From the IMG/VR virus record IMGVR_UViG_3300032234_000388, positions 1 through 64,000 of that record: a stretch of DNA of 64,000 nt, one strand, 5' to 3'. Within the stretch, counting starts at the first letter, position 1. Every line of letters begins with the position of its first letter. Below are positions 8,244 through 44,011 of the stretch, piece after piece. The translations under genes and the position numbers were made by a program. The DNA comes from a virus. Taxonomy: Duplodnaviria > Caudoviricetes. Under the pieces are notes generated by a model. That model ran no database searches. It had not been told where the DNA came from and worked only from the letters and a program-made list of their open reading frames with translations.

Positions 8244-8267
8244 CGCTCGCTCCTTTGTGATATTTGT

Positions 8268-20666: not shown

Positions 20667-20885
20667 TTATATGTAAGAATCAGCTGTGCGTAGCTGTAAT
20701 CCCGAATCCATGAGCGCAACTTGTGTGATGATTCGGTCAGGTACATAGAAGTCTAGGATGCCCATGGCGCCTGCATGTACATGACCTCCTGATCTCTGTA
20801 CCACAGCCCAAAGACGTTCTGGATCTACACTACAGTAATATGGATCGTATCTCACACAGTGTAGTGTGATCAGAGATTTTAACAC
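20667..20885 (-). CDS. hypothetical protein (GTG start)
   Basis: GGAGCGAACT-GTG leader, same spacing as at 23301-23311. Confidence 0.6.
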   Translation of the reverse strand: MLKSLITLHCVRYDPYYCSVDPERLWAVVQRSGGHVHAGAMGILDFYVPDRIITQVALMDSGLQLRTADSYI

Positions 20886-20938
20886 AGTTCGCTCCCGGGT
20901 TATATTAATACTTATATCAGGTATGCAAATTCTGCATA

Positions 20939-22355: not shown

Positions 22356-22432
22356 GGGCCGTTAGCTCAGTTGGTTAGAGCAGAGGACTCATAATCCTTT
22401 GGTCGTAGGTTCAAGTCCTACACGGCCCACCA
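22356..22432 (+). tRNA. tRNA-Ile2 (CAU, lysidine type); elongator Met not excluded
   Basis: Full cloverleaf, G1-C72, anticodon CAT, GGTTCAAGTCC, encoded CCA; D and anticodon arms resemble E. coli ileX. Confidence 0.9.
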
Positions 22433-23255: not shown

Positions 23256-23310
23256 CGTGGCGGGGGCCAACGAGAGAGCCCCCACAAATTCAACAACATA
23301 GGAGCGAACT

Positions 23311-23673
23311 ATGCAGCGACATTACGACACACTGTTAGAAGAACAACGTGGGCCCTTTACGGTTATCGTAGACAAAACTTGGGAAGATCTACACCCCAAC
23401 GATTGCTTTGACGAAAGCATTACAGACATCAAAGACATATGCGCTAAGATCGATCGCTGTGAGCTAGATTGGTTTATGCTGCGTGTACGTGTCTTGTTCG
23501 AGGGTCATGAGTTAGCTGCAGAACACGTGGGGGGCTTCCTCTACGAAGATGCACGTGAAGTACTACGTGATGGCACAGCAGAGGACATGATCAGCTGCGC
23601 AACTGAGCAGGCCAAGGAAGCAGCAGCAACACTGTTCCACAAATTACAGCGTCTAGATGAGGTCATGGGATGA
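23311..23673 (+). CDS. hypothetical early protein
   Basis: GGAGCGAA RBS. Confidence 0.75.
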   Translation: MQRHYDTLLEEQRGPFTVIVDKTWEDLHPNDCFDESITDIKDICAKIDRCELDWFMLRVRVLFEGHELAAEHVGGFLYEDAREVLRDGTAEDMISCATEQAKEAAATLFHKLQRLDEVMG

Positions 23674-23870: not shown

Positions 23871-23926
23871 CAACTAGCCCAAAAGGTGTTATACTAGCAC
23901 TTACACTAACAACATAGGAGCGAGCT

Positions 23927-24346
23927 ATGGGTACAAGAAGCAGAGTTGGCATCATGCACGGTGACGTGCTCAAATCAGTGTACTGTCACTATGACGGCTA
24001 TCTTAGCTGCACAGGGCAGATCCTGCAGCAGCACTACGATTCAGTCAAGACCAATGCACTGGTTGCACGTGGAGACAACAGTGGCATCCGCGAAGAACTA
24101 GACGATATGAACTTCTATGCAGATCGTGGCGAAGAGAACGTGAGCTGGCAAGTGGCACACAGCCTAGAAGAACTCATCGAGCAGACACACAACTGTGGGG
24201 GTGAGTATTACTACGTGATGAAGGACGGGGTATGGTATGCGGGTGCCGTATATGCCACAACTGGGTTGATTAAAGAACAGCTGGTACCCCTCATAGATGC
24301 GCTAGCGGACATACTGATCGAAGAGGGTATGGCAGCTGCTGAATAA
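23927..24346 (+). CDS. phage protein with MGTRS...YCHYDGY motif
   Basis: Own promoter and GGAGCGAG RBS. Confidence 0.8.
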   Translation: MGTRSRVGIMHGDVLKSVYCHYDGYLSCTGQILQQHYDSVKTNALVARGDNSGIREELDDMNFYADRGEENVSWQVAHSLEELIEQTHNCGGEYYYVMKDGVWYAGAVYATTGLIKEQLVPLIDALADILIEEGMAAAE

Positions 24347-24436
24347 CCCTGCAGCCCCTAGGGTTATTACTAGGGGTTGACAAGGGTGCCGTTTGGTAGT
24401 ATACTAGAGGTATTGTAATTAATTAGGAGCGAAGAT

Positions 24437-25510
24437 ATGCCAGCAATTGTAGAAGTTAGCGAAGGTACTTACAAGATTCGCGGAGCAGACACTAGCATGA
24501 GTGGCTTCCGTTTTGAGCTTGTAGAGGGTTTCAAAGAGGGTGCCTCTGGGGGCTATGTGACTGTAGCAGGTGGCACAGTACAGCCTAAGAACTCGGGTAT
24601 TCCAGATCGCAACATCAAGATCAAGTGCGAGTCAGCACAGAGCTACATGATTGTGTCAGGTGAAGTGCCAGCAACACCAGCAGGAGATAAGAGTTTGGAA
24701 CAGATCAAGGTGTCAGATGCAGTTGTTGCTAGCGAGACAGACGAAGAGATCGTAGAACGACTACGCCAGCGTTTCGAAGTGCTCAAAGACATGACCAAAG
24801 CAGTCAAAGAAGGCAATGTGCGTGCTATGATTGTCACAGGCCCTCCGGGTGTGGGCAAGAGCTTCGGTGTTGATGAAGTGCTGAGCAAGGACGACTTGTT
24901 CAATGCCCTAGGACAACGCAAGCCCAAGTACGAGATCGTCAAGGGTGCTATGAGTGCCATTGGCCTGTATACTAAGCTCTATCAGTACAGTGAGAAGGGC
25001 AATGTTATCGTGTTCGATGACTGTGACAGCGTTCTTTTGGACGACCTGAGCTTGAACATTCTTAAGGCTGCTCTTGATAGCTCTAAGAAGCGTACTATTT
25101 CGTGGAACACTGACAGCCGTATCCTGCGTAATGAGGGTGTACCTGATAAGTTTGAGTTCCGTGCAGGAGCCATCTTTATTACTAACATCAAGTTCGAGAA
25201 TGTACGATCTAAGAAGTTGCAGGATCACTTGGCTGCTCTTGAGAGTCGTTGCCACTACATTGATCTCCAAATGGACACAGATCGCGAGAAGTGCCTGCGT
25301 ATCAAGCAGATCGTACAGGACGGCATGCTGGACTCATACGAGTTTGAGGATGTACAACGCGATGAGGTAGTGGACTTCGTTATGGAGAATCGCAACCGTA
25401 TGCGTGAGTTGAGCTTGCGTACTGTACTGAAGATCGCAGACTTGCGTAAGAGCTTTACCACTAACTGGAAGGCCATGGCTGAAGTCACTGTTATGAAGCG
25501 AGGTGTGTAA
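24437..25510 (+). CDS. AAA-type P-loop ATPase
   Basis: Walker A GPPGVGKS, Walker B IVFDDCD, sensor FITN, ALESR. Confidence 0.85.
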   Translation: MPAIVEVSEGTYKIRGADTSMSGFRFELVEGFKEGASGGYVTVAGGTVQPKNSGIPDRNIKIKCESAQSYMIVSGEVPATPAGDKSLEQIKVSDAVVASETDEEIVERLRQRFEVLKDMTKAVKEGNVRAMIVTGPPGVGKSFGVDEVLSKDDLFNALGQRKPKYEIVKGAMSAIGLYTKLYQYSEKGNVIVFDDCDSVLLDDLSLNILKAALDSSKKRTISWNTDSRILRNEGVPDKFEFRAGAIFITNIKFENVRSKKLQDHLAALESRCHYIDLQMDTDREKCLRIKQIVQDGMLDSYEFEDVQRDEVVDFVMENRNRMRELSLRTVLKIADLRKSFTTNWKAMAEVTVMKRGV

Positions 25511-25767
25511 TGGGTGCTTGTACATACCTAGGCCCCGAGTACGATAGCCGTACTTGGGATTACACTCAGAGTGCCACACCCTACTGTGGGTGTGCTACAC
25601 TAGAGGGCAAGAGCTACTGTTCAGATCACTACTACAAGGTCTACAAGAAGGGCAGTTCTAACCTAAAGAACAACACAAAGGCCATTGAGAAAGAAATCGC
25701 GGACATCGAACTCAAACGATTGATCGCACAGCAGGAAGCAGATGAGGGAGAACTTGCTAATGTTTAA
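25510..25767 (+). CDS. Zn-binding protein resembling the GcrA C-terminal domain
   Basis: CTYLG...YCG...GKSYCSDH. Confidence 0.5.
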   Translation: MGACTYLGPEYDSRTWDYTQSATPYCGCATLEGKSYCSDHYYKVYKKGSSNLKNNTKAIEKEIADIELKRLIAQQEADEGELANV

Positions 25768-25963
25768 GAATACATTCATTGTTTTGGTAGTAGCGGCACT
25801 GTTGATCGTGCTGGTAGTAGCAGGACCCTTGTTGGTCTTATGGTCATGGAACACTCTGTTTGGGGCTCTGTACGCTATACCCTACACAGTTTGGACGTGG
25901 TTGGCCGTGTTGATCATTGGGGTGTTTATCCGTGGCAACGTAAAGATTACCAAAAAAGACTAA
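25760..25963 (+). CDS. small 2-TM membrane protein
   Basis: GGGAG RBS; two hydrophobic segments. Confidence 0.7.
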   Translation: MFKNTFIVLVVAALLIVLVVAGPLLVLWSWNTLFGALYAIPYTVWTWLAVLIIGVFIRGNVKITKKD

Positions 25964-26063
25964 AACGGTAAGGTTGATGTTGACCATAAAGTTAGATTGT
26001 TGTAAACTAGTATCACGCTGAAGAAAAGTAATCAGCTTTTATTAACTAATAGGAAATACAAAC

Positions 26064-26336
26064 ATGAAACGTATTAACAAAGACACTAAGACTTTTAAGA
26101 TTTTCAACGCATTGTACAACGGTGCTAAGTTGACTGCCAGCCAAGCTGAGAAGCAGTTTGGTGTAAAGAACTTGAGCGCAGAAGTTAGCCGCATCAAGCA
26201 GAATGGCTATGCAGTGTACGCTCGTACACGCAAAGCTGGCAACGGTGTGACTGTTCGTGAATACGAAATGGGTCAGCCATCACGTGAGATCGTAGCTCTA
26301 GGCTACAAAGCCAAAGCATTGGGCATCACTCTTTAA
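26064..26336 (+). CDS. winged-HTH DNA-binding protein
   Basis: LTASQAEKQFGVKNLSAEVSRIKQNGY HTH pattern followed by a beta-wing. Confidence 0.65.
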   Translation: MKRINKDTKTFKIFNALYNGAKLTASQAEKQFGVKNLSAEVSRIKQNGYAVYARTRKAGNGVTVREYEMGQPSREIVALGYKAKALGITL

Positions 26337-26381
26337 TAGCAGTTTCAAACCTATACCGATTCGCTCCCGGGGCGGGTTTGA

Positions 26382-26410
26382 GGAAGGTCGCAAAAGCGGC
26401 CTTTCTTTTT
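26382..26410 (+). terminator. intrinsic terminator
   Basis: ggaaggtcgc-aaaa-gcggcctttc-ttttt. Confidence 0.8.
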
Positions 26411-26513
26411 GACCTAGGTGTTGCGAAAAAGCCACAGACCCCGGCACTCCCGTGGTTGACAAATCGGATAAATGATAGTATACTAGCCGTATAGTTAGAA
26501 CTTAGGAGCGAGT

Positions 26514-27137
26514 ATGTTTACAGCAGATCATGTGTGGGGCCTAGCAGTTGCAGCCGATCGTATAAACGGGGGCTATGTCAAAGCTGACATCTACGCTGAG
26601 AACCTCGATGTAGTCCAAAAGCAGGCCAACAAGACCATGGTCAAGGGCTGGCTGCGTAATGGTCAGAACCCCGCAACAGCAGCAGACGTTGAACGTGGCC
26701 GTGAGGTTCGCAACTACTTCAACGGCTACTTGCTCAAGCAGATCGCGGGCAAGATCAACGACTTCGAAGCCACCGCGCTGCGTATAGCACAGATGGATGA
26801 GTTCAGCAGCAAGAACCTGTTAGAGTTCTCTGTGGTATCATGCTTGCCATCAGTGATGCTGCGTGATCAAAGCCGTAAGGAGCTTAAGAACGCGATCTCC
26901 AGCTCCACACAACTGCAGGCCGAGGTGGGGGACAAGATCACGGGCGAAATCGAAGTGTTCAAATGCGACTACAATCAGACCTACGATAAGTTTATCGTCC
27001 AGGCTCGTTTGGGCGATTCTTACGTGAGCTTCTGGTTCGGCAGTCGACTAGAAGGTGCCGTGACCATTCGAGCAAAGGTAAAAGAACAGCGTGGCGATAA
27101 TACAACAGCCCTAAACTTTGTGAAAATCATCGGTTGA
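26514..27137 (+). CDS. hypothetical protein, possible C-terminal OB-fold
   Basis: Own promoter and GGAGCGAG RBS. Confidence 0.75.
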   Translation: MFTADHVWGLAVAADRINGGYVKADIYAENLDVVQKQANKTMVKGWLRNGQNPATAADVERGREVRNYFNGYLLKQIAGKINDFEATALRIAQMDEFSSKNLLEFSVVSCLPSVMLRDQSRKELKNAISSSTQLQAEVGDKITGEIEVFKCDYNQTYDKFIVQARLGDSYVSFWFGSRLEGAVTIRAKVKEQRGDNTTALNFVKIIG

Positions 27138-27212
27138 CATTTAGCCCAATTGGTGCTATACTATTAACACTGAGAGAGCAGTTATATTAATCGTACTAAA
27201 GTGAGGTCTTAA

Positions 27213-28298
27213 ATGAGTAAAACTACAGATATCAGCGTTCGCCAAGTTGGTCCTAAGAGCGCCAAGCGAAGCATCAACCGTGCTATCAAGATGCGTCGTC
27301 CAGTGTTCCTTTGGGGCCCTCCAGGCATTGGCAAGTCAGACATCGTTAAGCAGATCGGCGATGACGCTGGTCGTGAAGTAATTGACGTTCGCCTAGCACT
27401 TTGGGAACCCACAGACATCAAGGGTATTCCTTATTACAATGCAGACATGGGCACTATGACATGGGCTCCTCCTGCAGAACTTCCTACTAACGCAGACTCT
27501 AAAGCAATCATCTTCCTTGATGAGTTGAACTCTGCACCCCCAGCAGTACAGGCCGCTGCCTATCAGTTGATCCTTAACCGTCGAGTAGGCACATACAAAT
27601 TGCCCGAGGGTGTAGACATTGTAGCGGCTGGTAATCGCGACGGTGACCGTGGTGTGACTTATCGTATGCCTGCTCCGTTGGCTAACCGCTTCGTTCATTT
27701 GGAAGCCAAAGTGGACTTTGATGACTGGCAGGATTGGGCTACCCTTAACAAGGTGCACCCAGAGGTTGTAGGTTATGTGGGCTTTGCCAAGCAGGACTTG
27801 TATGACTACGATCCTAAGAGCTCTAGCAAGGCATTTGCAACTCCTCGTTCATGGAGTTTCGTATCAGACTTGTTGGGTGATGATGACTGCGATACAGACA
27901 CATTACACAACTTGATCGCGGGTGCCGTAGGTGATGGCCTTGCAACTAAGTTCATGGCTCACCGTAAGGTAGCAGGTCGTATGCCTAAGGCAGCAGACAT
28001 CCTTGATGGCAAGGTTAGCACACTCGAGATCAAAGAAGTGTCAGCGATGTATTCTTTGACTGTATCCTTGTGCTATGAGTTGAAAGATCGTGCAGAGAAG
28101 AAGACTGCCAAGTGGGATGATATGGCAGATAAGTTCTTCCGCTATATGATGGATAACTTCCCTACAGAGTTGGTAGTGATGGGTGCAAAGACAGCCCTTA
28201 CCAACTATGACTTGCCGTTGGACGCTACGAAGATGAAGAGCTTTGACGAGTTCCATAAACGCTTCGGCAAGTATGTTCTCAGTGCTATGGAGAATTAA
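27213..28298 (+). CDS. MoxR-like AAA+ ATPase
   Basis: GPPGIGKS, FLDELN, AAGN, PLANRF, TPRSW. Confidence 0.92.
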   Translation: MSKTTDISVRQVGPKSAKRSINRAIKMRRPVFLWGPPGIGKSDIVKQIGDDAGREVIDVRLALWEPTDIKGIPYYNADMGTMTWAPPAELPTNADSKAIIFLDELNSAPPAVQAAAYQLILNRRVGTYKLPEGVDIVAAGNRDGDRGVTYRMPAPLANRFVHLEAKVDFDDWQDWATLNKVHPEVVGYVGFAKQDLYDYDPKSSSKAFATPRSWSFVSDLLGDDDCDTDTLHNLIAGAVGDGLATKFMAHRKVAGRMPKAADILDGKVSTLEIKEVSAMYSLTVSLCYELKDRAEKKTAKWDDMADKFFRYMMDNFPTELVVMGAKTALTNYDLPLDATKMKSFDEFHKRFGKYVLSAMEN

Positions 28299-28414
28299 GA
28301 CCTCTACCATAGCAAGGGTGGGCAAGTATATCAGGCTTGGCCCACCCAACCTATTAGGGGTTGACAGATTGTCCAAAAGGTGCTATAATATACATATACT
28401 AAGGAGAGCGAGCA

Positions 28415-29611
28415 ATGGACCCAATTATTGACAAACTAACTACTGCCAGAGTAGGCCTGCTCCTTAAAGCACCATTCTTTGGCAACATGGCAACTCGTAT
28501 GCGTTTGATCGACGCTAGTGACTGGTGTCCTACAGCGGCAACTAATGGCCGTGACTTTATGTATAATAAAGACTTTGTCACTAAACTATCTGTTAAGAAA
28601 CTAGAGTTCCTATTCGCACACGAGATCTGCCATGCGGTGTTTGATCACTTTGGCCGTGTTGGTAGCCGTGATCGTATGCTGTCTAACATCGCACAGGACT
28701 ACGCTGTCAATCAGATCCTTGTAGACGAACGCATTGGCGAGAAGATCACTGAAGTGCAGATCTGCTACGATTCAAAGTATCGTGGTAAGGCCTGGGAAGA
28801 GATCTACGATGAGCTCTACGAGAAAGCAGAGAAGATCTCAATGCCTGAGCTTCTAAAGCAACTGGGTGACTTACTTGATGAGCATTTGAAAGAAGAAGGC
28901 CCGGGTGAGGGTGATCAGAACGGTGAAGGCAAGGGCAAGCCTAGTATCAGCAAAGAGGACGCACAGAAGATCCGCGATGAGATCAAAGAAGCAATGATCC
29001 AGAGTGCCGCGGCCGCAGGTGCTGGTAAGGTACCCGCAGGTATCCAGCGTATGATCAAGGACTTGACTGAGCCTAAGATGAACTGGCGTGAGCTGGTGCG
29101 TATGAACATTCAGAGCATCGTGCGTAATGACTATTCATTCAGCAGACCCAGCCGTAAGGGCCAGATGAGTGGTGCTATCCTCCCAGGTATGAAGCAAGAC
29201 GAAACTATTGATGTGGCCATTGGTATCGATATGTCGGGCAGTATTGGGCAAGAAGATGCAACTGTATTCCTTTCAGAAGTCAAAGGTATCATGGATCAGT
29301 ATCAGGACTTTGCCATTGACATCTGGTGCTTTGATACATCCATTTACAATCATCAGCGTATCACACACGACAACGATCAGGACTTGCTAGACTATGAGCC
29401 TGAGGGTGGCGGTGGCACAGACTTTATGGCCAATTGGGAGTTTATGAAAGAGCAGGGCATACAGCCTAAGAAGTTCATTATGTTCACAGACGGCTACCCA
29501 TGTGGTGAGTGGGGTGACGAGAACTACTGTGATACCCTGTTCATTGTCAAAGGCAATAAGGACTGTGAAGCACCGTTCGGCCAGACAGTGATCTACGAAA
29601 AAGAAGCATAA
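28415..29611 (+). CDS. metallopeptidase-like + vWA domain protein (DUF2201 type)
   Basis: TAATNG, HEICH; MIDAS DMSGS...GGGGTDF...FTDG. Confidence 0.88.
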   Translation: MDPIIDKLTTARVGLLLKAPFFGNMATRMRLIDASDWCPTAATNGRDFMYNKDFVTKLSVKKLEFLFAHEICHAVFDHFGRVGSRDRMLSNIAQDYAVNQILVDERIGEKITEVQICYDSKYRGKAWEEIYDELYEKAEKISMPELLKQLGDLLDEHLKEEGPGEGDQNGEGKGKPSISKEDAQKIRDEIKEAMIQSAAAAGAGKVPAGIQRMIKDLTEPKMNWRELVRMNIQSIVRNDYSFSRPSRKGQMSGAILPGMKQDETIDVAIGIDMSGSIGQEDATVFLSEVKGIMDQYQDFAIDIWCFDTSIYNHQRITHDNDQDLLDYEPEGGGGTDFMANWEFMKEQGIQPKKFIMFTDGYPCGEWGDENYCDTLFIVKGNKDCEAPFGQTVIYEKEA

Positions 29612-29832
29612 GAGCTACGGGCGGATGATGGCAGTCCTAGGGAACATCCTTAATGCAGAGACAACTCAAACGCGGGCCAACTCTGCGCCCACCTATTTGA
29701 AGAGTGCCGGCGGGTGTGGCTTTTTTACAACAGACCCCGCTGCTACACGCATGCGTGCATCTAGGTAGATGGTTGACAAAAGAACAAATTGGTGCTATAC
29801 TGTTTATAACTTAACAAAGTAAGGAGCGGAAG

Positions 29833-29970
29833 ATGGAATTACTTATAGCATTCGTAGCAGGACTTGTGGTAATGGATGTATTGTGGGCTTGGCGTTTGGG
29901 CATTCCGCAGGCTATGTATTATCGTTTTAAACATCGCAATGACCCTAAATCTAACTTCGAGCAGGAGTAA
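29833..29970 (+). CDS. 45-aa membrane peptide (not in ORF track)
   Basis: GGAGCGGA RBS; MELLIAFVAGLVVMDVLWAW... Confidence 0.65.
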   Translation: MELLIAFVAGLVVMDVLWAWRLGIPQAMYYRFKHRNDPKSNFEQE

Positions 29971-29972
29971 TC

Positions 29973-30101
29973 ATGCTTAAAATTATTGTAGCATTCGCAG
30001 CAGGGATGTTCGTGGCAACTGTGGGAGTGTCTGGTGTTGCCAACGCAGTAGACAAGGCTGTAGGCAAGACACAAGAAGTTATGAAGGAGACTGTTAAGTG
30101 A
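29973..30101 (+). CDS. 42-aa membrane peptide (not in ORF track)
   Basis: AGGAG RBS; MLKIIVAFAAGMFVATVGVSG... Confidence 0.65.
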   Translation: MLKIIVAFAAGMFVATVGVSGVANAVDKAVGKTQEVMKETVK

Positions 30102-30241
30102 GCTACAGACCTACATACGAAGATCCAGAGTATTACGACGATGCAGAATCTAACGAAGGCGATTGGCAGGAAATGCCCTCTGAACAAGAAGTCAACGAGA
30201 TGGCAGACTCTTATAGCCCTTATGTCACGGTGAACTCATGA
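30098..30241 (+). CDS. 47-aa acidic peptide (not in ORF track)
   Basis: AAGGAG RBS; GTGA and ATGA coupling. Confidence 0.6.
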   Translation: MSYRPTYEDPEYYDDAESNEGDWQEMPSEQEVNEMADSYSPYVTVNS

Positions 30242-30534
30242 GCAGACTAGAATACTATTCACGCCCTTGGGTAGCGTTCGATGCGGATAACAAAGAGCAC
30301 AGACGCTATTACGCAGAGTTCCTAAAGTTTAACACCTGGGGACGTTGCCCTGTAAGGTTCCTAGTCACAGACGAACACGGCATGGATCTGCCTACGATGA
30401 TTCGCAACAAGCTCTGCGAATACTACGTGGCACAGGAGTTCAAGCGGGAGAAGCTGGAGAAGAGGAATCACCCTAAGCATCGTAAGGTTATTGGGTTGAC
30501 AAATGGCGGCAAAGGTGTTATACTAGAGGTATAG
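30238..30534 (+). CDS. hypothetical protein
   Basis: Coupled ORF. Confidence 0.7.
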   Translation: MSRLEYYSRPWVAFDADNKEHRRYYAEFLKFNTWGRCPVRFLVTDEHGMDLPTMIRNKLCEYYVAQEFKREKLEKRNHPKHRKVIGLTNGGKGVILEV

Positions 30535-30554
30535 TAAACAATTTGGAGCGAAAG

Positions 30555-30821
30555 ATGTACTTACAAATCCTATCCGAAGACGAACAACAGACTGTGGTGC
30601 GTGCCTTACGTGGCCCACAGTTTGATCGCAAACGCCACGGTGGCCTATACGATCGTGGATCAGCAGACTCATACTATGGCCGCCCACGTGATCCGCATTG
30701 GTATCCTGAGGGCAGCTACGAAGGCGAGCCAGTGGAGTCCTTGACCCCTGCAGAGATCGAAGAGTACTTGGCAGGCTACGATTACAACGAACAGTACGGC
30801 CACAAGAAAGACTACTCCTAA
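30555..30821 (+). CDS. hypothetical protein (HGGLYDRGSADSYYGR motif)
   Basis: ATG at 30555 follows GGAGCGAA. Confidence 0.75.
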   Translation: MYLQILSEDEQQTVVRALRGPQFDRKRHGGLYDRGSADSYYGRPRDPHWYPEGSYEGEPVESLTPAEIEEYLAGYDYNEQYGHKKDYS

Positions 30822-31156
30822 TGGAAGCCCTTAGAGAGACAACTGATTGGGCAGTGCCTGGTCACACCTATCTGCTAGATGGTACAACACTTGTTGCCTA
30901 CATCAAGAAGGGTGAAACCGAGCCTTTCTACTTCAGCAAAGGCATCAAAGGGTTTGACAAGCGAGGCCGTAAGTTTGTACCCGCAGACAAGAGTCTCTTT
31001 GAGCAGTCCGCTAGCACGAACTTGATCGAAGTGCAGGGAAGCAAGGGTGCCGTCTACTATGTAGATCCTGAATTGCATTCATGTACCTGTCCGGGGTTCA
31101 CGTTCCGAGGAAAATGCAAACACACAGACGTTTTGGTTGACAATTTGGTTGTTTGA
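30821..31156 (+). CDS. SWIM zinc-finger protein
   Basis: GSKG..Y.V...CTCPGF..RGKCKH. Confidence 0.8.
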   Translation: MEALRETTDWAVPGHTYLLDGTTLVAYIKKGETEPFYFSKGIKGFDKRGRKFVPADKSLFEQSASTNLIEVQGSKGAVYYVDPELHSCTCPGFTFRGKCKHTDVLVDNLVV

Positions 31157-31201
31157 TGTTATACTATTAACACTAAGAGATTAACTAGAAGGAGCGAACA
31201 A

Positions 31202-31387
31202 ATGGTACAACTCGAAGACATCCGTGAAGGCAGCATCGTAATCGTCCGTGGGGACTTTGGTCAAGGCCGTCCACGTGAAGTGGTTGTAGAAGCTGTCGAG
31301 GCCGATATCAAGAACGGCCGCCCAGGGATCGATTACGCAGGCAGTTGGGCCTACCTCACCCAGGTTGATCGCGTGGTGAGCTACTGA
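31202..31387 (+). CDS. small SH3-like hypothetical protein
   Basis: GGAGCGAA RBS. Confidence 0.7.
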   Translation: MVQLEDIREGSIVIVRGDFGQGRPREVVVEAVEADIKNGRPGIDYAGSWAYLTQVDRVVSY

Positions 31388-31605
31388 TGAAGAAGTACAC
31401 CTACTGGCGCAACTCTATCGTGGCAGAGTTCTACGAAGTAGTGGCAGAGAACGAAGAACAGGCCTATCAGCAGCTCATGGATGGGTGCCACGATCCGGTT
31501 CATACAGAGTTTGTAGACTGGGCCACAGGTACCTACGAGATCGAAGACGTTGAAGAACTAGACCCTTTATATCGTATGGTTAAAGACTATGACAGACAGG
31601 TTTGA
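31387..31605 (+). CDS. acidic hypothetical protein
   Basis: TGATG coupling. Confidence 0.7.
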   Translation: MKKYTYWRNSIVAEFYEVVAENEEQAYQQLMDGCHDPVHTEFVDWATGTYEIEDVEELDPLYRMVKDYDRQV

Positions 31606-31858
31606 TAAGTTTGTTTGGTTTGTGCTCAGAGAAGAGGACAAGCAACTCCTAGCCCAGTATCGCAGTCCCAGCAATGAGACCAGCTTGTTTAAACAGATCC
31701 CTATAGAACACGTGGATCGAGTTAAGAAACTGGTTAGGCAACTAGGGCTGAATCCCAGGATAGTCTACCGTGGACCCCGTACACATCAGATCGATCCCAG
31801 CTTTACCCGTAAGGTAGATGCCCAAAGATTTACAGTTTATCATCGTGATTTTGGTTGA
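31589..31858 (+). CDS. hypothetical protein
   Basis: RIVYRGPR motif. Confidence 0.65.
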   Translation: MTDRFDKFVWFVLREEDKQLLAQYRSPSNETSLFKQIPIEHVDRVKKLVRQLGLNPRIVYRGPRTHQIDPSFTRKVDAQRFTVYHRDFG

Positions 31859-31910
31859 CATTTTGAGCAATTGATGTTATACTATTAACACTGAGAGATT
31901 AGGAGCGAAG

Positions 31911-32054
31911 ATGAAATACACAGTGATAACAAAGCAGGGCAAGATCAAGCAGTTCTATATCGAATCAGTGGCACAGATGTATGTGAACCTAAAAGGCGGT
32001 GTTGTTTTTACGCAACAAATTTTGGTTGACAATCCTGTCCAAACTGTAGTATAA
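31911..32054 (+). CDS. 47-aa hypothetical protein (not in ORF track)
   Basis: Own promoter and GGAGCGAA RBS; MKYTVITKQGKIKQFYIESVAQMY... Confidence 0.7.
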   Translation: MKYTVITKQGKIKQFYIESVAQMYVNLKGGVVFTQQILVDNPVQTVV

Positions 32055-32079
32055 TATACACATACTAAGGAGAGCGACG

Positions 32080-32280
32080 ATGTATGATATTGTGACTAAC
32101 CCGATTCCTAAAACAGGATTCTTTGCTACCCCTGAATCATATCAGGATTTGATGGACTACTTGGATCGGTTCAACGGTTCAGAGAAAGCCCTGGCAATGA
32201 CTATTGCTTGTATGAGTCTTAACCTAGCACACAAACTGGTTGAAGACAACATTCTTAACAAAGAAGTATTCGGACAATAA
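32080..32280 (+). CDS. hypothetical protein
   Basis: Own promoter and GGAGAGCGAC RBS. Confidence 0.7.
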   Translation: MYDIVTNPIPKTGFFATPESYQDLMDYLDRFNGSEKALAMTIACMSLNLAHKLVEDNILNKEVFGQ

Positions 32281-32289
32281 GGAGCCTGT

Positions 32290-32916
32290 ATGCCAAATTG
32301 GTGTTCAAACAACCTAGTTCTAACACACGAAGATCCAGCAATGATCAAGCGTGCCTATGATGCACTTGAGCGTGGCGAGTTCCTTAGTGAGTTCATTCCA
32401 GTTCCTGAGCAACTTAAGATTGTTGCTGGCATGGTCAGTGATGAAGCAGAGCAGGCTAAGTTAGAAGCAGACACTGCTCGCAACTTAGAAGAGTTGGGCT
32501 ACGGCAACTGGTATGACTTCTGCGTAGGTGAGTGGGGAACCAAATGGGACTGCGGTGAGCAGGGCAACAGCGATATCCACCCAGGCGGTCGGATGCTACA
32601 CACATTCTTTGAATCAGCGTGGAGCCCTCCGGTTAATGCCTACGAGAAGTTAGTGGACATGGGTTTTGGTGTAGAAGCCATGTATTACGAAGGTGGTATG
32701 GCCTATGCTGGCACATGGAGCAACGGCAACGACGACTACATTGATCTCAGCGAGTTGGGTGCAGACGATATCGAGCGTGACTACCCTGAAATCGACGAGT
32801 GCTTTGGTATCTCAGAGTGCATGCGTGAGTATGAAGCAGACAACCAAGAAGAATTGTCAGAGTGGCTCAAAGACGGTGTTGAGCAGAACAAGAAACTGGG
32901 GTTGATCGCACAATGA
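32290..32916 (+). CDS. DUF1281/YubB-like ferredoxin-fold protein
   Basis: MPNWCSN...WYDFC..EWGTKWD...FESAWSPP...YYEGG. Confidence 0.8.
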   Translation: MPNWCSNNLVLTHEDPAMIKRAYDALERGEFLSEFIPVPEQLKIVAGMVSDEAEQAKLEADTARNLEELGYGNWYDFCVGEWGTKWDCGEQGNSDIHPGGRMLHTFFESAWSPPVNAYEKLVDMGFGVEAMYYEGGMAYAGTWSNGNDDYIDLSELGADDIERDYPEIDECFGISECMREYEADNQEELSEWLKDGVEQNKKLGLIAQ

Positions 32917-33089
32917 GAGAGATGAAGTTCCAATTTACAGTGATCTGCGCCGGCGAAGGCCGGGCAGATGACACACTGGTCGAATCCATGATTGATTTGG
33001 CCATGCAGGATCTGGTCTATGACGACGAGTTTGTCGCCGCCCTAGACGAGAAAGAAGCAGTGACCATTCAGGTGTCTAGAATTGGATAA
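32913..33089 (+). CDS. 58-aa acidic protein (not in ORF track)
   Basis: ATGA coupling. Confidence 0.6.
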   Translation: MREMKFQFTVICAGEGRADDTLVESMIDLAMQDLVYDDEFVAALDEKEAVTIQVSRIG

Positions 33090-33182
33090 TTGAATGGTTG
33101 ACTGTTTGGGCTAGCTATGTTATAATAGTAGCTCGAGTAGTAGTAACTTAACTTTAACACACACAGAAGGAAGTAGACTAAA

Positions 33183-33485
33183 ATGGCAACAGCAAAGAAA
33201 TTCGCAGTAGCAGGTGTTTCAACTCTAGCAGGTAAGACTAAGATTCGTTTCGCCAACGATACAATGCGCATCAAGATCTTGGCTAAAAACGGACACACAA
33301 ACGTTGAGTTGGTCAGCCTCCCACACGAGATGACCAAGGGTGAGATCGCAGCACACTTGACCAGCATTGGTTTTGGCTCAGGATCTCCAGCTGTACAAGC
33401 AGCTATTAGCTATATAGCTAAGAAGAATCCAGCTCCAGAAGCTGTGAAGACTCCTGCCGTGAAGGCAGCAGCAGTTACTGCCTAA
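33183..33485 (+). CDS. small basic Ala/Lys-rich protein
   Basis: Own promoter, AGGAAG RBS; KIRFAND..RIKILAKNGH. Confidence 0.8.
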   Translation: MATAKKFAVAGVSTLAGKTKIRFANDTMRIKILAKNGHTNVELVSLPHEMTKGEIAAHLTSIGFGSGSPAVQAAISYIAKKNPAPEAVKTPAVKAAAVTA

Positions 33486-33520
33486 ACCGATTCGCTCCCG
33501 GGATTGGCAGTTTGTGGTAC

Positions 33521-33550
33521 ACCCAGGCCCTAAAAAGCCTGGGTTTTTTT
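33521..33550 (+). terminator. intrinsic terminator
   Basis: acccaggc-cctaaaaa-gcctgggt-tttttt. Confidence 0.8.
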
Positions 33551-33632
33551 GTGGCTCTAATACAACACCGTTTGGATTGCATTTTGGACAAAGTTGTGTT
33601 ATACTAACAGTATTAACACATAGGAGCTAACA

Positions 33633-34161: not shown

Positions 34162-34217
34162 CATTTTGGACAATGTGTGCTATAATGTACACATAAACTA
34201 AGCAACTAGGAGCGAAA

Positions 34218-34457
34218 ATGAATAAAATTAAAATTGTAGACACAGTGGATAACAGGTACTTTGTTAGTGCTACAACTAGCGGAAGTACTAGCGACATTTA
34301 CTTAACAGATGGCACTACAACTGTTAAGCTAGAGGACTGTTTAATTTGGGACAGTGAGCTGTTTGAGGACGCGGAGTTTTACGACGTTGTTAAACACTGT
34401 AAAGCTAACGGCGGAGTAGGAGTAGACAGCTACGAGGGCTGGAGCATTGTTGCATAA
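34218..34457 (+). CDS. acidic hypothetical protein (TC/CC-free island gene 3)
   Basis: Own promoter and GGAGCGAA RBS; no Pro; all Ser encoded by AGY. Confidence 0.75.
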   Translation: MNKIKIVDTVDNRYFVSATTSGSTSDIYLTDGTTTVKLEDCLIWDSELFEDAEFYDVVKHCKANGGVGVDSYEGWSIVA

Positions 34458-42541: not shown

Positions 42542-44011
42542 CTAATTAAACACAGGTAAACCATGTAGTTGACTCCAGGTCCTAGCATCGGCATGATCAT
42601 TGATCATCGGTTGCCCTTTGATATTCAAACTGGTATTCAACAGCATAGGACAGCCCGTAGCTTCGTACCATAACTCTAATAATTCTCTAAATTGCGGATT
42701 ATCGGATTTACTGACCGTTTGTACACGGCTGGTTCCGTCGGTATGTACGATGGCCGAATAAGACTCAGATTCCAAACAAGGCGCAATAAATTGCATGTAA
42801 GCTGTTGATTTTGTTGGCATTTTAAAGTACTGATTTGCAAATTCTTCTAATATTGCAGGGGCAAAGGGTCTAAACTGCTCTCGGTGCTTTATATTGTTAA
42901 TTGCGACCTTTATTTCCGGACCACGCGGATCTGCTATCAAACTGCGGTTTCCTAAGGCTCTAGGACCAAACTCTGCAGGACCGCGAGCAAGTCCGCACAT
43001 TTTGTGTTCGAGCAGATGAGCAACAATTTCTTTATTGCTAGCCTTATAGCCCATATCATATCCTAGATACGGGCCTTGCCAATCTATATGCGTTTTCTTA
43101 TGAGCAAGTACTGCACCAATTGCACTGCCGCTATCTCCGGGTGCCGGCATTATCCAAACACGATCGAAGTATTTGTAGGCAATAGGGTTAGCGGCACAGT
43201 TTAGAGCACATCCTCCCATAAACACTAGATTTCTACTTGAGCTGGTTCTAACGGCCTGCTGTAAGACTCGCTCAAATGCCATCTCGTATACAGCTTGTGT
43301 AGCTGCTGCTATATCGTACAAATCTTGCTGTGTTGTTAATTCAGGACGCCACCAATTACATCCTCGATGTAAATTTTGTTTAATCCTGTAAACATGTTCA
43401 TAATCATCATTAGGAAAACTAACAAAATCATTTAATAGGTCTCTGATAAATCTATTAGGGTTTCCTAGTGCTGCCATGCCCATTAAGATATATTCTTCTT
43501 CGTTGGGCTTTAAGCCGCAGCGTTGTGTCATTGCACTATAAAACAATCCTAAACTGTTTGGATATTCTAGAATGTATCGTTTGTGTAGGTTAGTGCCAAC
43601 AGCATCCCACTGTGTTAGACATTCAAATTCGCCAATGGCATCGATTACTAGTACACAGGCATCTTCAAACCCGCTAGTGTAATAACCTGCGGCTGCGTGT
43701 GTTTGGTGATGTCCAAAAGTTTTAATCGGTGTTCGAATATTAAACTTTCTAAGATAATCTTTTACATTATTATTCTGCCATCCTTGCCCGGCAGTTAACT
43801 GCCTTAGAGTTTTTAACCAAGGACGTTCGTACCAGCAAACTAATTCAGGTTTACCAAATGTTCGAGCATGTTCTATTAATTCATAACTGAGATCTGGATC
43901 GTTCTTAAGTTTACTAAACCGTTCTGATTCGCTGGCAAATACTAATTTGTCATTGTCAAACACGGCCAAGGCAGCATTATGGCTGGCTGCAGATATTCCC
44001 CAGGTAATCAT
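42542..44011 (-). CDS. carbamoyltransferase (NodU/CmcH family)
   Basis: HHQTHAA, DAIGE, GGCALN, EFGPRALGNRS, FRPFAP, LLNTSLN. Confidence 0.93.
   Translation of the reverse strand: MITWGISAASHNAALAVFDNDKLVFASESERFSKLKNDPDLSYELIEHARTFGKPELVCWYERPWLKTLRQLTAGQGWQNNNVKDYLRKFNIRTPIKTFGHHQTHAAAGYYTSGFEDACVLVIDAIGEFECLTQWDAVGTNLHKRYILEYPNSLGLFYSAMTQRCGLKPNEEEYILMGMAALGNPNRFIRDLLNDFVSFPNDDYEHVYRIKQNLHRGCNWWRPELTTQQDLYDIAAATQAVYEMAFERVLQQAVRTSSSRNLVFMGGCALNCAANPIAYKYFDRVWIMPAPGDSGSAIGAVLAHKKTHIDWQGPYLGYDMGYKASNKEIVAHLLEHKMCGLARGPAEFGPRALGNRSLIADPRGPEIKVAINNIKHREQFRPFAPAILEEFANQYFKMPTKSTAYMQFIAPCLESESYSAIVHTDGTSRVQTVSKSDNPQFRELLELWYEATGCPMLLNTSLNIKGQPMINDHADARTWSQLHGLPVFN

Follow-up and report, generated by a model that had tools for sequence, protein, structure and literature searches.

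In bacteriophage T4, early Shine–Dalgarno (SD) sequences are recognised at GGAG by the RegB endoribonuclease and RegA is a translational repressor, both of them proteins. Among RNAs, the closest described systems are the Cuckoo family of alphaproteobacteria (two to four adjacent hairpins with variable stems and a constant C-rich loop, CCUCCUCCC, that holds the anti-SD core CUCC; PMC4615179), the autoregulatory small RNAs OppZ and CarZ of Vibrio cholerae, which derive from the 3′ untranslated region (UTR) at the end of an operon, pair with their own transcript and inhibit translation (PMC7398697), and the icaR messenger RNA (mRNA) of Staphylococcus aureus, in which base pairing between a C-rich 3′-UTR motif and the SD region prevents the initiation complex from forming, the contact being intramolecular and an RNase III substrate (PMC3868564). 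Here we describe a family of phage hairpins, encoded twice in the first 64 kb (64,000 nucleotides, nt; hereafter the window) of the IMG/VR record IMGVR_UViG_3300032234_000388 (198,723 bases, 40% G+C, CheckV completeness 56%), whose 9-nt loop (the anti-tag) very probably base-pairs with an extended SD sequence (the tag) that serves as ribosome-binding site (RBS) in the leaders of early genes. The element appears to belong neither to RegB/RegA nor, as far as the three reports describe them, to Cuckoo, OppZ/CarZ or icaR, from which loop motif, phage origin, private RBS tag and co-evolving dialects set it apart; searches of the literature, aimed at the motif and at anti-SD small RNAs of phages, returned nothing on the motif or on such a phage circuit.

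The element is an exact 17-mer, ACCGATTCGCTCCCGGG, found on the + strand at 26355–26371 and 33486–33502, with no further match in the window even when up to three mismatches are allowed (0.05 expected); its 15-nt core has two copies only in the whole record. RNA folding gives both copies the same architecture, comprising an outer stem of 6–8 base pairs (bp), a small internal loop, an inner CCG/CGG stem and the 9-nt loop AUUCGCUCC, on outer stems of unlike sequence. Copy 1 begins 19 nt past the stop codon of its carrier gene and copy 2 only 1 nt past that of its own, such that the 5′ arm of the hairpin 2 outer stem overlaps the last codons and TAA stop of the gene. Neither hairpin in the window is itself an intrinsic terminator, as no T-run follows directly and separate terminators come next; in many relatives the element lies inside the loop of the terminator stem itself. 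The hairpins, their terminators and their carrier genes are as follows.

26345–26381, + strand: anti-tag hairpin 1, outer stem 26345–26352/26374–26381, inner CCG/CGG stem 26356–58/26368–70, loop AUUCGCUCC at 26359–26367; in the 3′ UTR of the winged helix-turn-helix (wHTH) gene
26382–26410, + strand: intrinsic terminator 1, directly after hairpin 1; 10-bp GC-rich stem, AAAA loop, T5 run
33477–33511, + strand: anti-tag hairpin 2, outer stem 33477–33482/33506–33511, inner stem 33487–89/33499–501, loop AUUCGCUCC at 33490–33498
33521–33551, + strand: intrinsic terminator 2, after hairpin 2; 8-bp stem, T7 run
26064–26336, + strand: carrier gene 1, 90-residue winged-helix protein (Pfam HTH_39, phrog_4973); RBS AGGAAA, untagged; last gene of the ATPase operon
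33183–33485, + strand: carrier gene 2, 100-residue conserved protein; own sigma-70-type promoter at 33098–33126; RBS AAGGAAG, untagged; transcribed as a monocistronic mRNA

This placement of both hairpins between the last stop codon (1–19 nt away) and an intrinsic terminator matches that given for OppZ and CarZ in the cited account, and a C-rich 3′-UTR motif complementary to the SD region is likewise what is described for icaR. When the minus strand is read, no start codon stands at RBS spacing from either element. Against Rfam 15, only a transfer RNA (tRNA) at 22356–22429 passes threshold in the window, and relaxed filters (E ≤ 1) gave nothing over the hairpins in loci L001 and L002 or in four related loci.

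We find the exact reverse complement of the loop, the tag GGAGCGAA, nine times in 198 kb, all within 20.8–34.2 kb of the record: six + strand leaders, one − strand leader (within CCCGGGAGCGAA) and the two loops read backwards. The window holds 15 copies of the heptamer GGAGCGA where 3.4 would be expected, an excess of about four-fold; none of 100 shuffles reached 15. As GGAGCGA(A/G) it forms the RBS of ten promoter-proximal leaders, 2–6 nt ahead of the start codon and mostly ~20 nt past a −10 box.

23301–23308, + strand: tag GGAGCGAA, leader of 23311–23673
23917–23924, + strand: tag GGAGCGAG, leader of 23927–24346; position 8 pairs as G–U
24426–24433, + strand: tag GGAGCGAA, leader of the ATPase gene 24437–25510; operon promoter at 24377–24405
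26505–26512, + strand: tag GGAGCGAG, leader of 26514–27137, the first gene past hairpin 1 and its terminator
30545–30552, + strand: tag GGAGCGAA, ATG start at 30555
31191–31198, + strand: tag GGAGCGAA, leader of 31202–31387
31902–31909, + strand: tag GGAGCGAA, leader of 31911–32054
34209–34216, + strand: tag GGAGCGAA, leader of 34218–34457
20888–20899, − strand: CCCGGGAGCGAA, leader of the divergent gene 20667–20885 (GTG start); 12 nt complementary to the loop plus the 3′ closing arm
8246–8253, − strand: tag GGAGCGAG, leader of a minus-strand gene beyond the early block

An earlier note on this DNA, made from its letters alone, had described the paired hairpins with their CCG/CGG closure, differing outer stems and terminators, the exact complementarity to the six GGAGCGAA leaders, the G–U-pairing GGAGCGAG leaders, the 12-nt match at 20667–20885, the other RBSs of the two carriers and the lack of a minus-strand start; folding and renewed searches bear out each of these, the minus-strand GGAGCGAG leader lying at 8246–8253.

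The predicted energetics separate tagged from untagged leaders. Duplexes between loop and tagged leaders come to −12.8 to −14.3 kcal/mol, those of the same leaders with the canonical 16S tail to −6.5 to −8.6 kcal/mol, and those of the loop with clearly untagged leaders to −1 to −5.5 kcal/mol, such that the 8-bp loop–tag duplex has about twice the stability of the duplex between tag and canonical 16S tail. The CGAA of the tag adds no pairing with that tail, and these four conserved bases are therefore hard to account for unless another partner reads them. A search for hairpin loops that would pair with other common leader words (GGAGCACA, GGAGCAGA, GGAGCATG, GGAGCGCA, GGAGAGCG, GGAGCAAT and GGAGCGTA) yielded none.

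Some leaders depart from this pattern in detail. Near-variants of the tag are present in three + strand leaders, at 28403–28412, 32069–32078 and 29823–29832 (GGAGAGCGAG, GGAGAGCGAC and GGAGCGGAAG, respectively), with intermediate predicted loop pairing of −9.8 to −12.8 kcal/mol; since the GGAGAGCG form recurs two to three times per locus in relatives, these may constitute a graded class of targets. The leader of 20667–20885 (CCCGGGAGCGAAC) directly follows a −10-like box, so that its tag would sit at the extreme 5′ end of the mRNA, and this leader recurs at loci L287 and L098.

We next consider relatives of the two hairpins. The 15-nt core is present in at least 119 IMG/VR viral contigs; about 25 of the 119 hold it in high-GC or coding context without a stem and were set aside as chance matches (a 15-mer is expected by chance in a sequence collection of this size), and the remainder place it in the same two gene contexts as in the window, or inside or before terminators. 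When loci were instead sampled independently of the motif, via the wHTH protein (77–97% identity, 78 loci), the exact 15-mer was kept within 110 nt past the wHTH stop in 73. Across 175 distinct instances, a stem encloses the 9-nt loop and leaves it unpaired in 126 (versus 27 with shuffled flanks), and 151 distinct flank pairs surround the invariant loop. Closing pair 2 covaries between CG, TA and GC (paired in 172 of 175) and closing pair 3 takes six pair types; a T-run lies 3′ of the loop in 118 instances, as against an A-run 5′ of it in 3. The enclosed loop, varied flanks, covarying closing pairs and T-run/A-run asymmetry together indicate that the element is a strand-specific RNA structure displaying an invariant loop.

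Variable stems around a constant loop, and the CUCC core within it, are features shared with Cuckoo as that family is presented in PMC4615179, and many phage relatives also carry arrays, with two or three hairpins in tandem. Set against the same description, the phage element differs in its loop (AUUCGCUCC rather than CCUCCUCCC), in standing as single hairpins at two loci in the window, in being phage-encoded and placed in 3′ UTRs (often within terminator loops), and in matching a private extended RBS tag, with clade-specific dialects, rather than a generic SD sequence.

The tag accompanies the hairpin through these relatives. In 91 related loci (ascertained by the 15-mer, 741 kb), GGAGCGA occurs 366 times on the hairpin strand, nearly all ~20–25 nt past a TATAAT box and 2–8 nt ahead of an ATG, tag position 8 being A in 250 of the copies and G in 40 others. 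Where the hairpin is missing, in three homologous loci, GGAGCGA leaders are missing too. The loop variants AUUCGCUUC and AUUCGCUCU keep tag pairing via G–U, and loop position 1, which lies outside the duplex, is freely A or G. Leaders of the carrier genes themselves are devoid of the tag (0 of 62 wHTH and 0 of 61 second-carrier homologues).

Two side observations belong here. At L333:5784–5870 both loops read UCGCUCC, yet most leaders are GGAGCA(C/A) and not GGAGCGA; this could be a partly mismatched or transitional dialect. The second carrier protein is kept in at least 281 viral contigs and its structural model has a confident beta–alpha core (predicted local distance difference test, pLDDT, 76.6); searches found no Pfam or PHROG match and, with Foldseek against the PDB, nothing below E = 1, and the model gives no support for an RNA-chaperone role.

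More distant relatives retain the relationship with different letters. When leader words were counted de novo, L280 (GAGGGC) and L267 (AGCGAGG) stood out, both of which have hairpins with GCCCUC or CCUCGCU loops directly 3′ of a 334–346-residue ATPase that is 60–64% identical to the product of window gene 24437–25510. Sampling anchored on this ATPase (80 diverse loci, 52–89% identity) gave the following tag/anti-tag pairs.

Clade of the source phage: tag GGAGCGAA, anti-tag UUCGCUCC
L280–L286: tag (C)GAGGGCA, anti-tag UGCCCUC
L318, L330, L336 and L351: tag AGGAGCU(A), anti-tag (U)AGCUCCU
L348: tag AGGAGCG, anti-tag CGCUCCU
L349: tag UAACGGAGUAU, anti-tag AUACUCCGUUA, 11 nt
L335 and L341: tag UGUUGAAAGGC, anti-tag GCCUUUCAACA
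L267: tag AGCGAGG, anti-tag CCUCGCU

Written in DNA letters, the matched pairs among ATPase-ascertained relatives include TAACGGAGTAT/ATACTCCGTTA and TGTTGAAAGGC/GCCTTTCAACA. Comparing dialects by one fixed top 7-mer per locus told nothing, since that word shifts in register from locus to locus; this comparison was replaced by a matrix of longest exact complements between the ATPase leader (28 nt) and the 3′ region (133 nt) of seven clade representatives, assessed by permutation. The longest complements between each leader and its own 3′ region were 8, 8, 8, 11, 11, 7 and 7 nt (sum 60), against a permutation mean of 43 over 5040 arrangements, and the sum of 60 was reached by the true pairing alone (1 of 5040). 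On the ATPase tree the dialects are clade-specific. Clade-matched pairs, the permutation result and this clade specificity all point to tag and loop co-evolving as expected of base-pairing partners. In this respect the comparative checks proposed in the earlier note come out in favour of a functional pair: loop and leader motif are kept together (73 of 78 loci, 366 leader copies) and are co-absent where missing, sister clades carry different and mutually complementary pairs, and strand specificity and covarying stems speak against an orientation-independent DNA site.

The manner of display is less constant. At L335:5988–6060 and L341:2057–2120 the anti-tag GCCUUUCAACA is found in an A/U-rich single-stranded stretch ahead of a terminator, not in a hairpin loop, and display mode thus varies within the family; the SD core of this clade is AAAGG.

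The gene common to the dialects, represented in the window by 24437–25510 (+ strand), encodes an AAA-type ATPase (phrog_1250) homologous to T4 NrdC.10 (gene nrdC.10) and 30–38% identical to the proteins of Acj9, RB3 and other Straboviridae. In all clades an anti-tag lies at the 3′ end of the NrdC.10-like ATPase operon and the ATPase leader itself is tagged, which suggests that ATPase dosage is the ancestral regulated quantity. We think that the ancestral circuit was probably a feedback on this operon, given that hairpin 1 closes the tagged ATPase operon and that the ATPase leader is often the sole tagged one in distant clades; in the clade of the source phage the circuit appears to have grown into an early-gene regulon and to have gained a second anti-tag that stands on its own. 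As cultured models, the NrdC.10 homologues of Acj9 and RB3 were considered and rejected, since overlapping open reading frames follow them and leave no 3′ UTR.

From these elements we assemble a probable, though by no means assured, mode of action, in which 3′-UTR hairpins use their anti-tag loops to pair with the private RBS tag and so repress early translation in trans, possibly along with that of their own operon. The loop 5′-AUUCGCUCC-3′, at the 3′ ends of early transcripts, would pair over 8 nt with GGAGCGA(A/G) and cover the SD core and the four next bases of tagged leaders; because the duplex covers the SD core, 30S subunits would be expected to be kept off. Transcription of the hairpins would start at early sigma-70-type promoters and stop at a terminator hairpin followed by a U tail, a form usual among 3′-UTR-derived regulators; with such promoters and termini, hairpin RNA should build up with early transcription, leading to negative feedback on, or shut-off of, early-gene translation. 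Hairpin 2 would act in trans only, since the mRNA that bears it is monocistronic, has a separate promoter and begins with an untagged leader, and hairpin 1 could act on its own operon, because it closes an ATPase operon whose first leader is tagged. Such a circuit would resemble T4 RegB/RegA in silencing a class of early mRNAs via their ribosome-binding regions; unlike those proteins, its specificity would come from RNA–RNA complementarity. The earlier note had gone as far as proposing anti-SD small RNAs with a timed, RegB/RegA-like shut-off: comparative tests support loop and leader as a functional pair, and the ~70-nt 3′-UTR species, the repression and the timing stand as predictions from the sequence.

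Several points weigh against repression in trans as just set out. That hairpin and leader encounter each other inside the cell, that the 3′ end is set free as a short fragment and that translation is repressed are steps we infer. Because the hairpins come from early promoters, at the same time as the RNAs that they would target, sequence alone does not account for a timed switch; a loop–leader contact of 8 bp is short and no chaperone can be assigned; and the loop variant ACUCGCUCC, in three relatives, is present without a matching leader shift to GGAGCGAG. Tag/anti-tag co-variation would also arise if duplex DNA served as the site and were recognised in either orientation. Finally, sister clades have few tagged leaders beyond that of the ATPase, for which reason a regulon-wide trans role may be a derived feature of the source phage's clade.

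This last point bears on the alternative that survives best, namely a purely cis or autoregulatory device for the ATPase operon (icaR-like, or via a fragment like OppZ/CarZ), to which the other tagged leaders would be bystanders or secondary targets. Every dialect's anti-tag ends an ATPase-led unit whose ATPase leader bears the matching tag, and in L349 and L335 the match extends to 11 nt and is specific to that leader. In the window no terminator intervenes between the tagged leader at 24426 and hairpin 1, such that 5′–3′ pairing within the same molecule is possible on the 24405–26410 operon transcript; upstream regions of wHTH carriers are also consistent with operon transcription, 33 of 43 distinct ones having no promoter of their own. 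The likeness to OppZ/CarZ, within what PMC7398697 describes, is that hairpin 1 closes an operon with a complementary ATPase leader and that the sister-clade match is operon-specific (as regards complementarity only). Autoregulation or intramolecular 5′–3′ pairing is accordingly a live alternative or additional mode; as the whole account we regard it as unlikely. The gene that carries hairpin 2 has a consensus promoter to itself and a leader without the tag, and its transcript (33126–33551) has no cis tag with which to pair; moreover, the full 8-nt tag is kept in hundreds of leaders on other units, which is hard to account for without selection for pairing in trans. The same facts mark the differences from the bacterial systems as the cited reports depict them: OppZ and CarZ lack a counterpart to the many other target units, to the second copy on an untagged mRNA and to pairing through a structured loop, and icaR concerns a single gene, whereas the phage tag is common to about ten leaders and one of the hairpins cannot act in cis.

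A further proposal builds upon repression in trans rather than replacing it, and we hold it to be rather unlikely. The tags would form a private, fast-evolving addressing code, in which the anti-tag RNA of a resident phage silences superinfecting relatives that share its tag (an RNA-based superinfection exclusion) and escape drives orthogonal dialects; it draws on the dialects GGAGCGAA, GAGGGCA, AGGAGCU, AGCGAGG, UAACGGAGUAU and UGUUGAAAGGC and on their clade specificity.

Loop–leader pairing might, alternatively, be real and have a positive or protective effect, the loop shielding GGAG leaders from a RegB-like endonuclease or from decay, or tethering mRNAs. This would draw on the same complementarity as repression does, and the phage is T4-like (Gp23, E 1.6e-98); T4-type phages cleave early SD sequences at GGAG via RegB. 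The idea is nonetheless doubtful, given that a duplex over the SD core would normally exclude 30S subunits, and that the leaders are short, CA-rich and unstructured, with no inhibitory fold to open. No RegB (PF10715) or RegA (PF01818) homologue was found in the 198.7 kb, a result to be read alongside the 56% completeness of the record and controls that likewise gave no match.

Very unlikely, in our estimate, is that tag and anti-tag represent the same duplex DNA site placed in opposite orientations and recognised by a DNA-binding protein of the phage, such as the wHTH protein. Such a site is identical from either strand, making clade co-variation automatic, and hairpin 1 does lie directly behind a winged-helix gene. 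A duplex site would, however, have no need of display in a hairpin loop on covarying stems of unconserved sequence, nor of the fixed orientation relative to transcription (118 versus 3). The tag always holds the SD core at RBS spacing, in every dialect; two of three loop variants in the pairing region are C-to-U changes that keep G–U pairing but alter a DNA site; and hairpins of sister clades follow the ATPase gene, not the wHTH gene. Least probable of all is a protein-binding or terminator-associated RNA element (a stabiliser, processing site or antitermination site), which the constant position next to or inside intrinsic terminators and an invariant 9-nt loop resembling a protein recognition loop would suit, but whose incidental complementarity to leaders does not explain six or seven clades with different loops, each matching its own leader.

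If the pairing works as we propose, a large group of uncultured freshwater T4-like jumbo phages would control a class of early genes by means of a short RNA loop and a private SD extension. The clade dialects amount to natural compensatory-mutation experiments and would supply synthetic biology with ready-made tag/anti-tag pairs, orthogonal to one another, for controlling translation. The proposal also provides a testable account of the CGAA bases, which lack 16S ribosomal RNA pairing and yet are conserved in hundreds of early leaders, and links the system with a single conserved gene of unknown function, that of the NrdC.10-like ATPase; the ancestral target may be the dosage of this ATPase.

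The genomic setting is that of a T4-like virus with a compact early block. The major capsid protein encoded by the record is a T4-type Gp23, and a close relative measures 353 kb at 98% completeness, from which we conclude that the source is an uncultured T4-like jumbo phage. Megablast of the 26–34 kb region found no match among cultured phages, and in tblastn the wHTH protein had pelagiphage HTVC008M as its sole match (35%). Between 21987 and 35198 the + strand holds 17 near-consensus sigma-70-type promoters (11–12 of 12 consensus matches; TTGACA-17-TATAAT/TATACT, many with a TG extension) within 13 kb, each ahead of one to four small genes, a layout over 21.9–35.2 kb that is typical of an early region; the spacing of these promoters is unusually dense and regular. 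The tRNA gene noted above (22356–22429, + strand, 75.5 bits) falls within this block.

Also on the + strand, at 27213–29611, a MoxR-like AAA ATPase adjoins a DUF2201 metallopeptidase/VWA protein; the former is 51% identical to its counterpart in the Pseudomonas jumbo phage PA5oct and relatives, which were set aside as a comparison since the architecture of their region differs. Further downstream, at 42542–44011 on the − strand, a Nol-like carbamoyltransferase (phrog_1601, E 1.9e-96) adjoins a DnaB-like helicase and is probably an auxiliary or DNA/sugar-modification gene.

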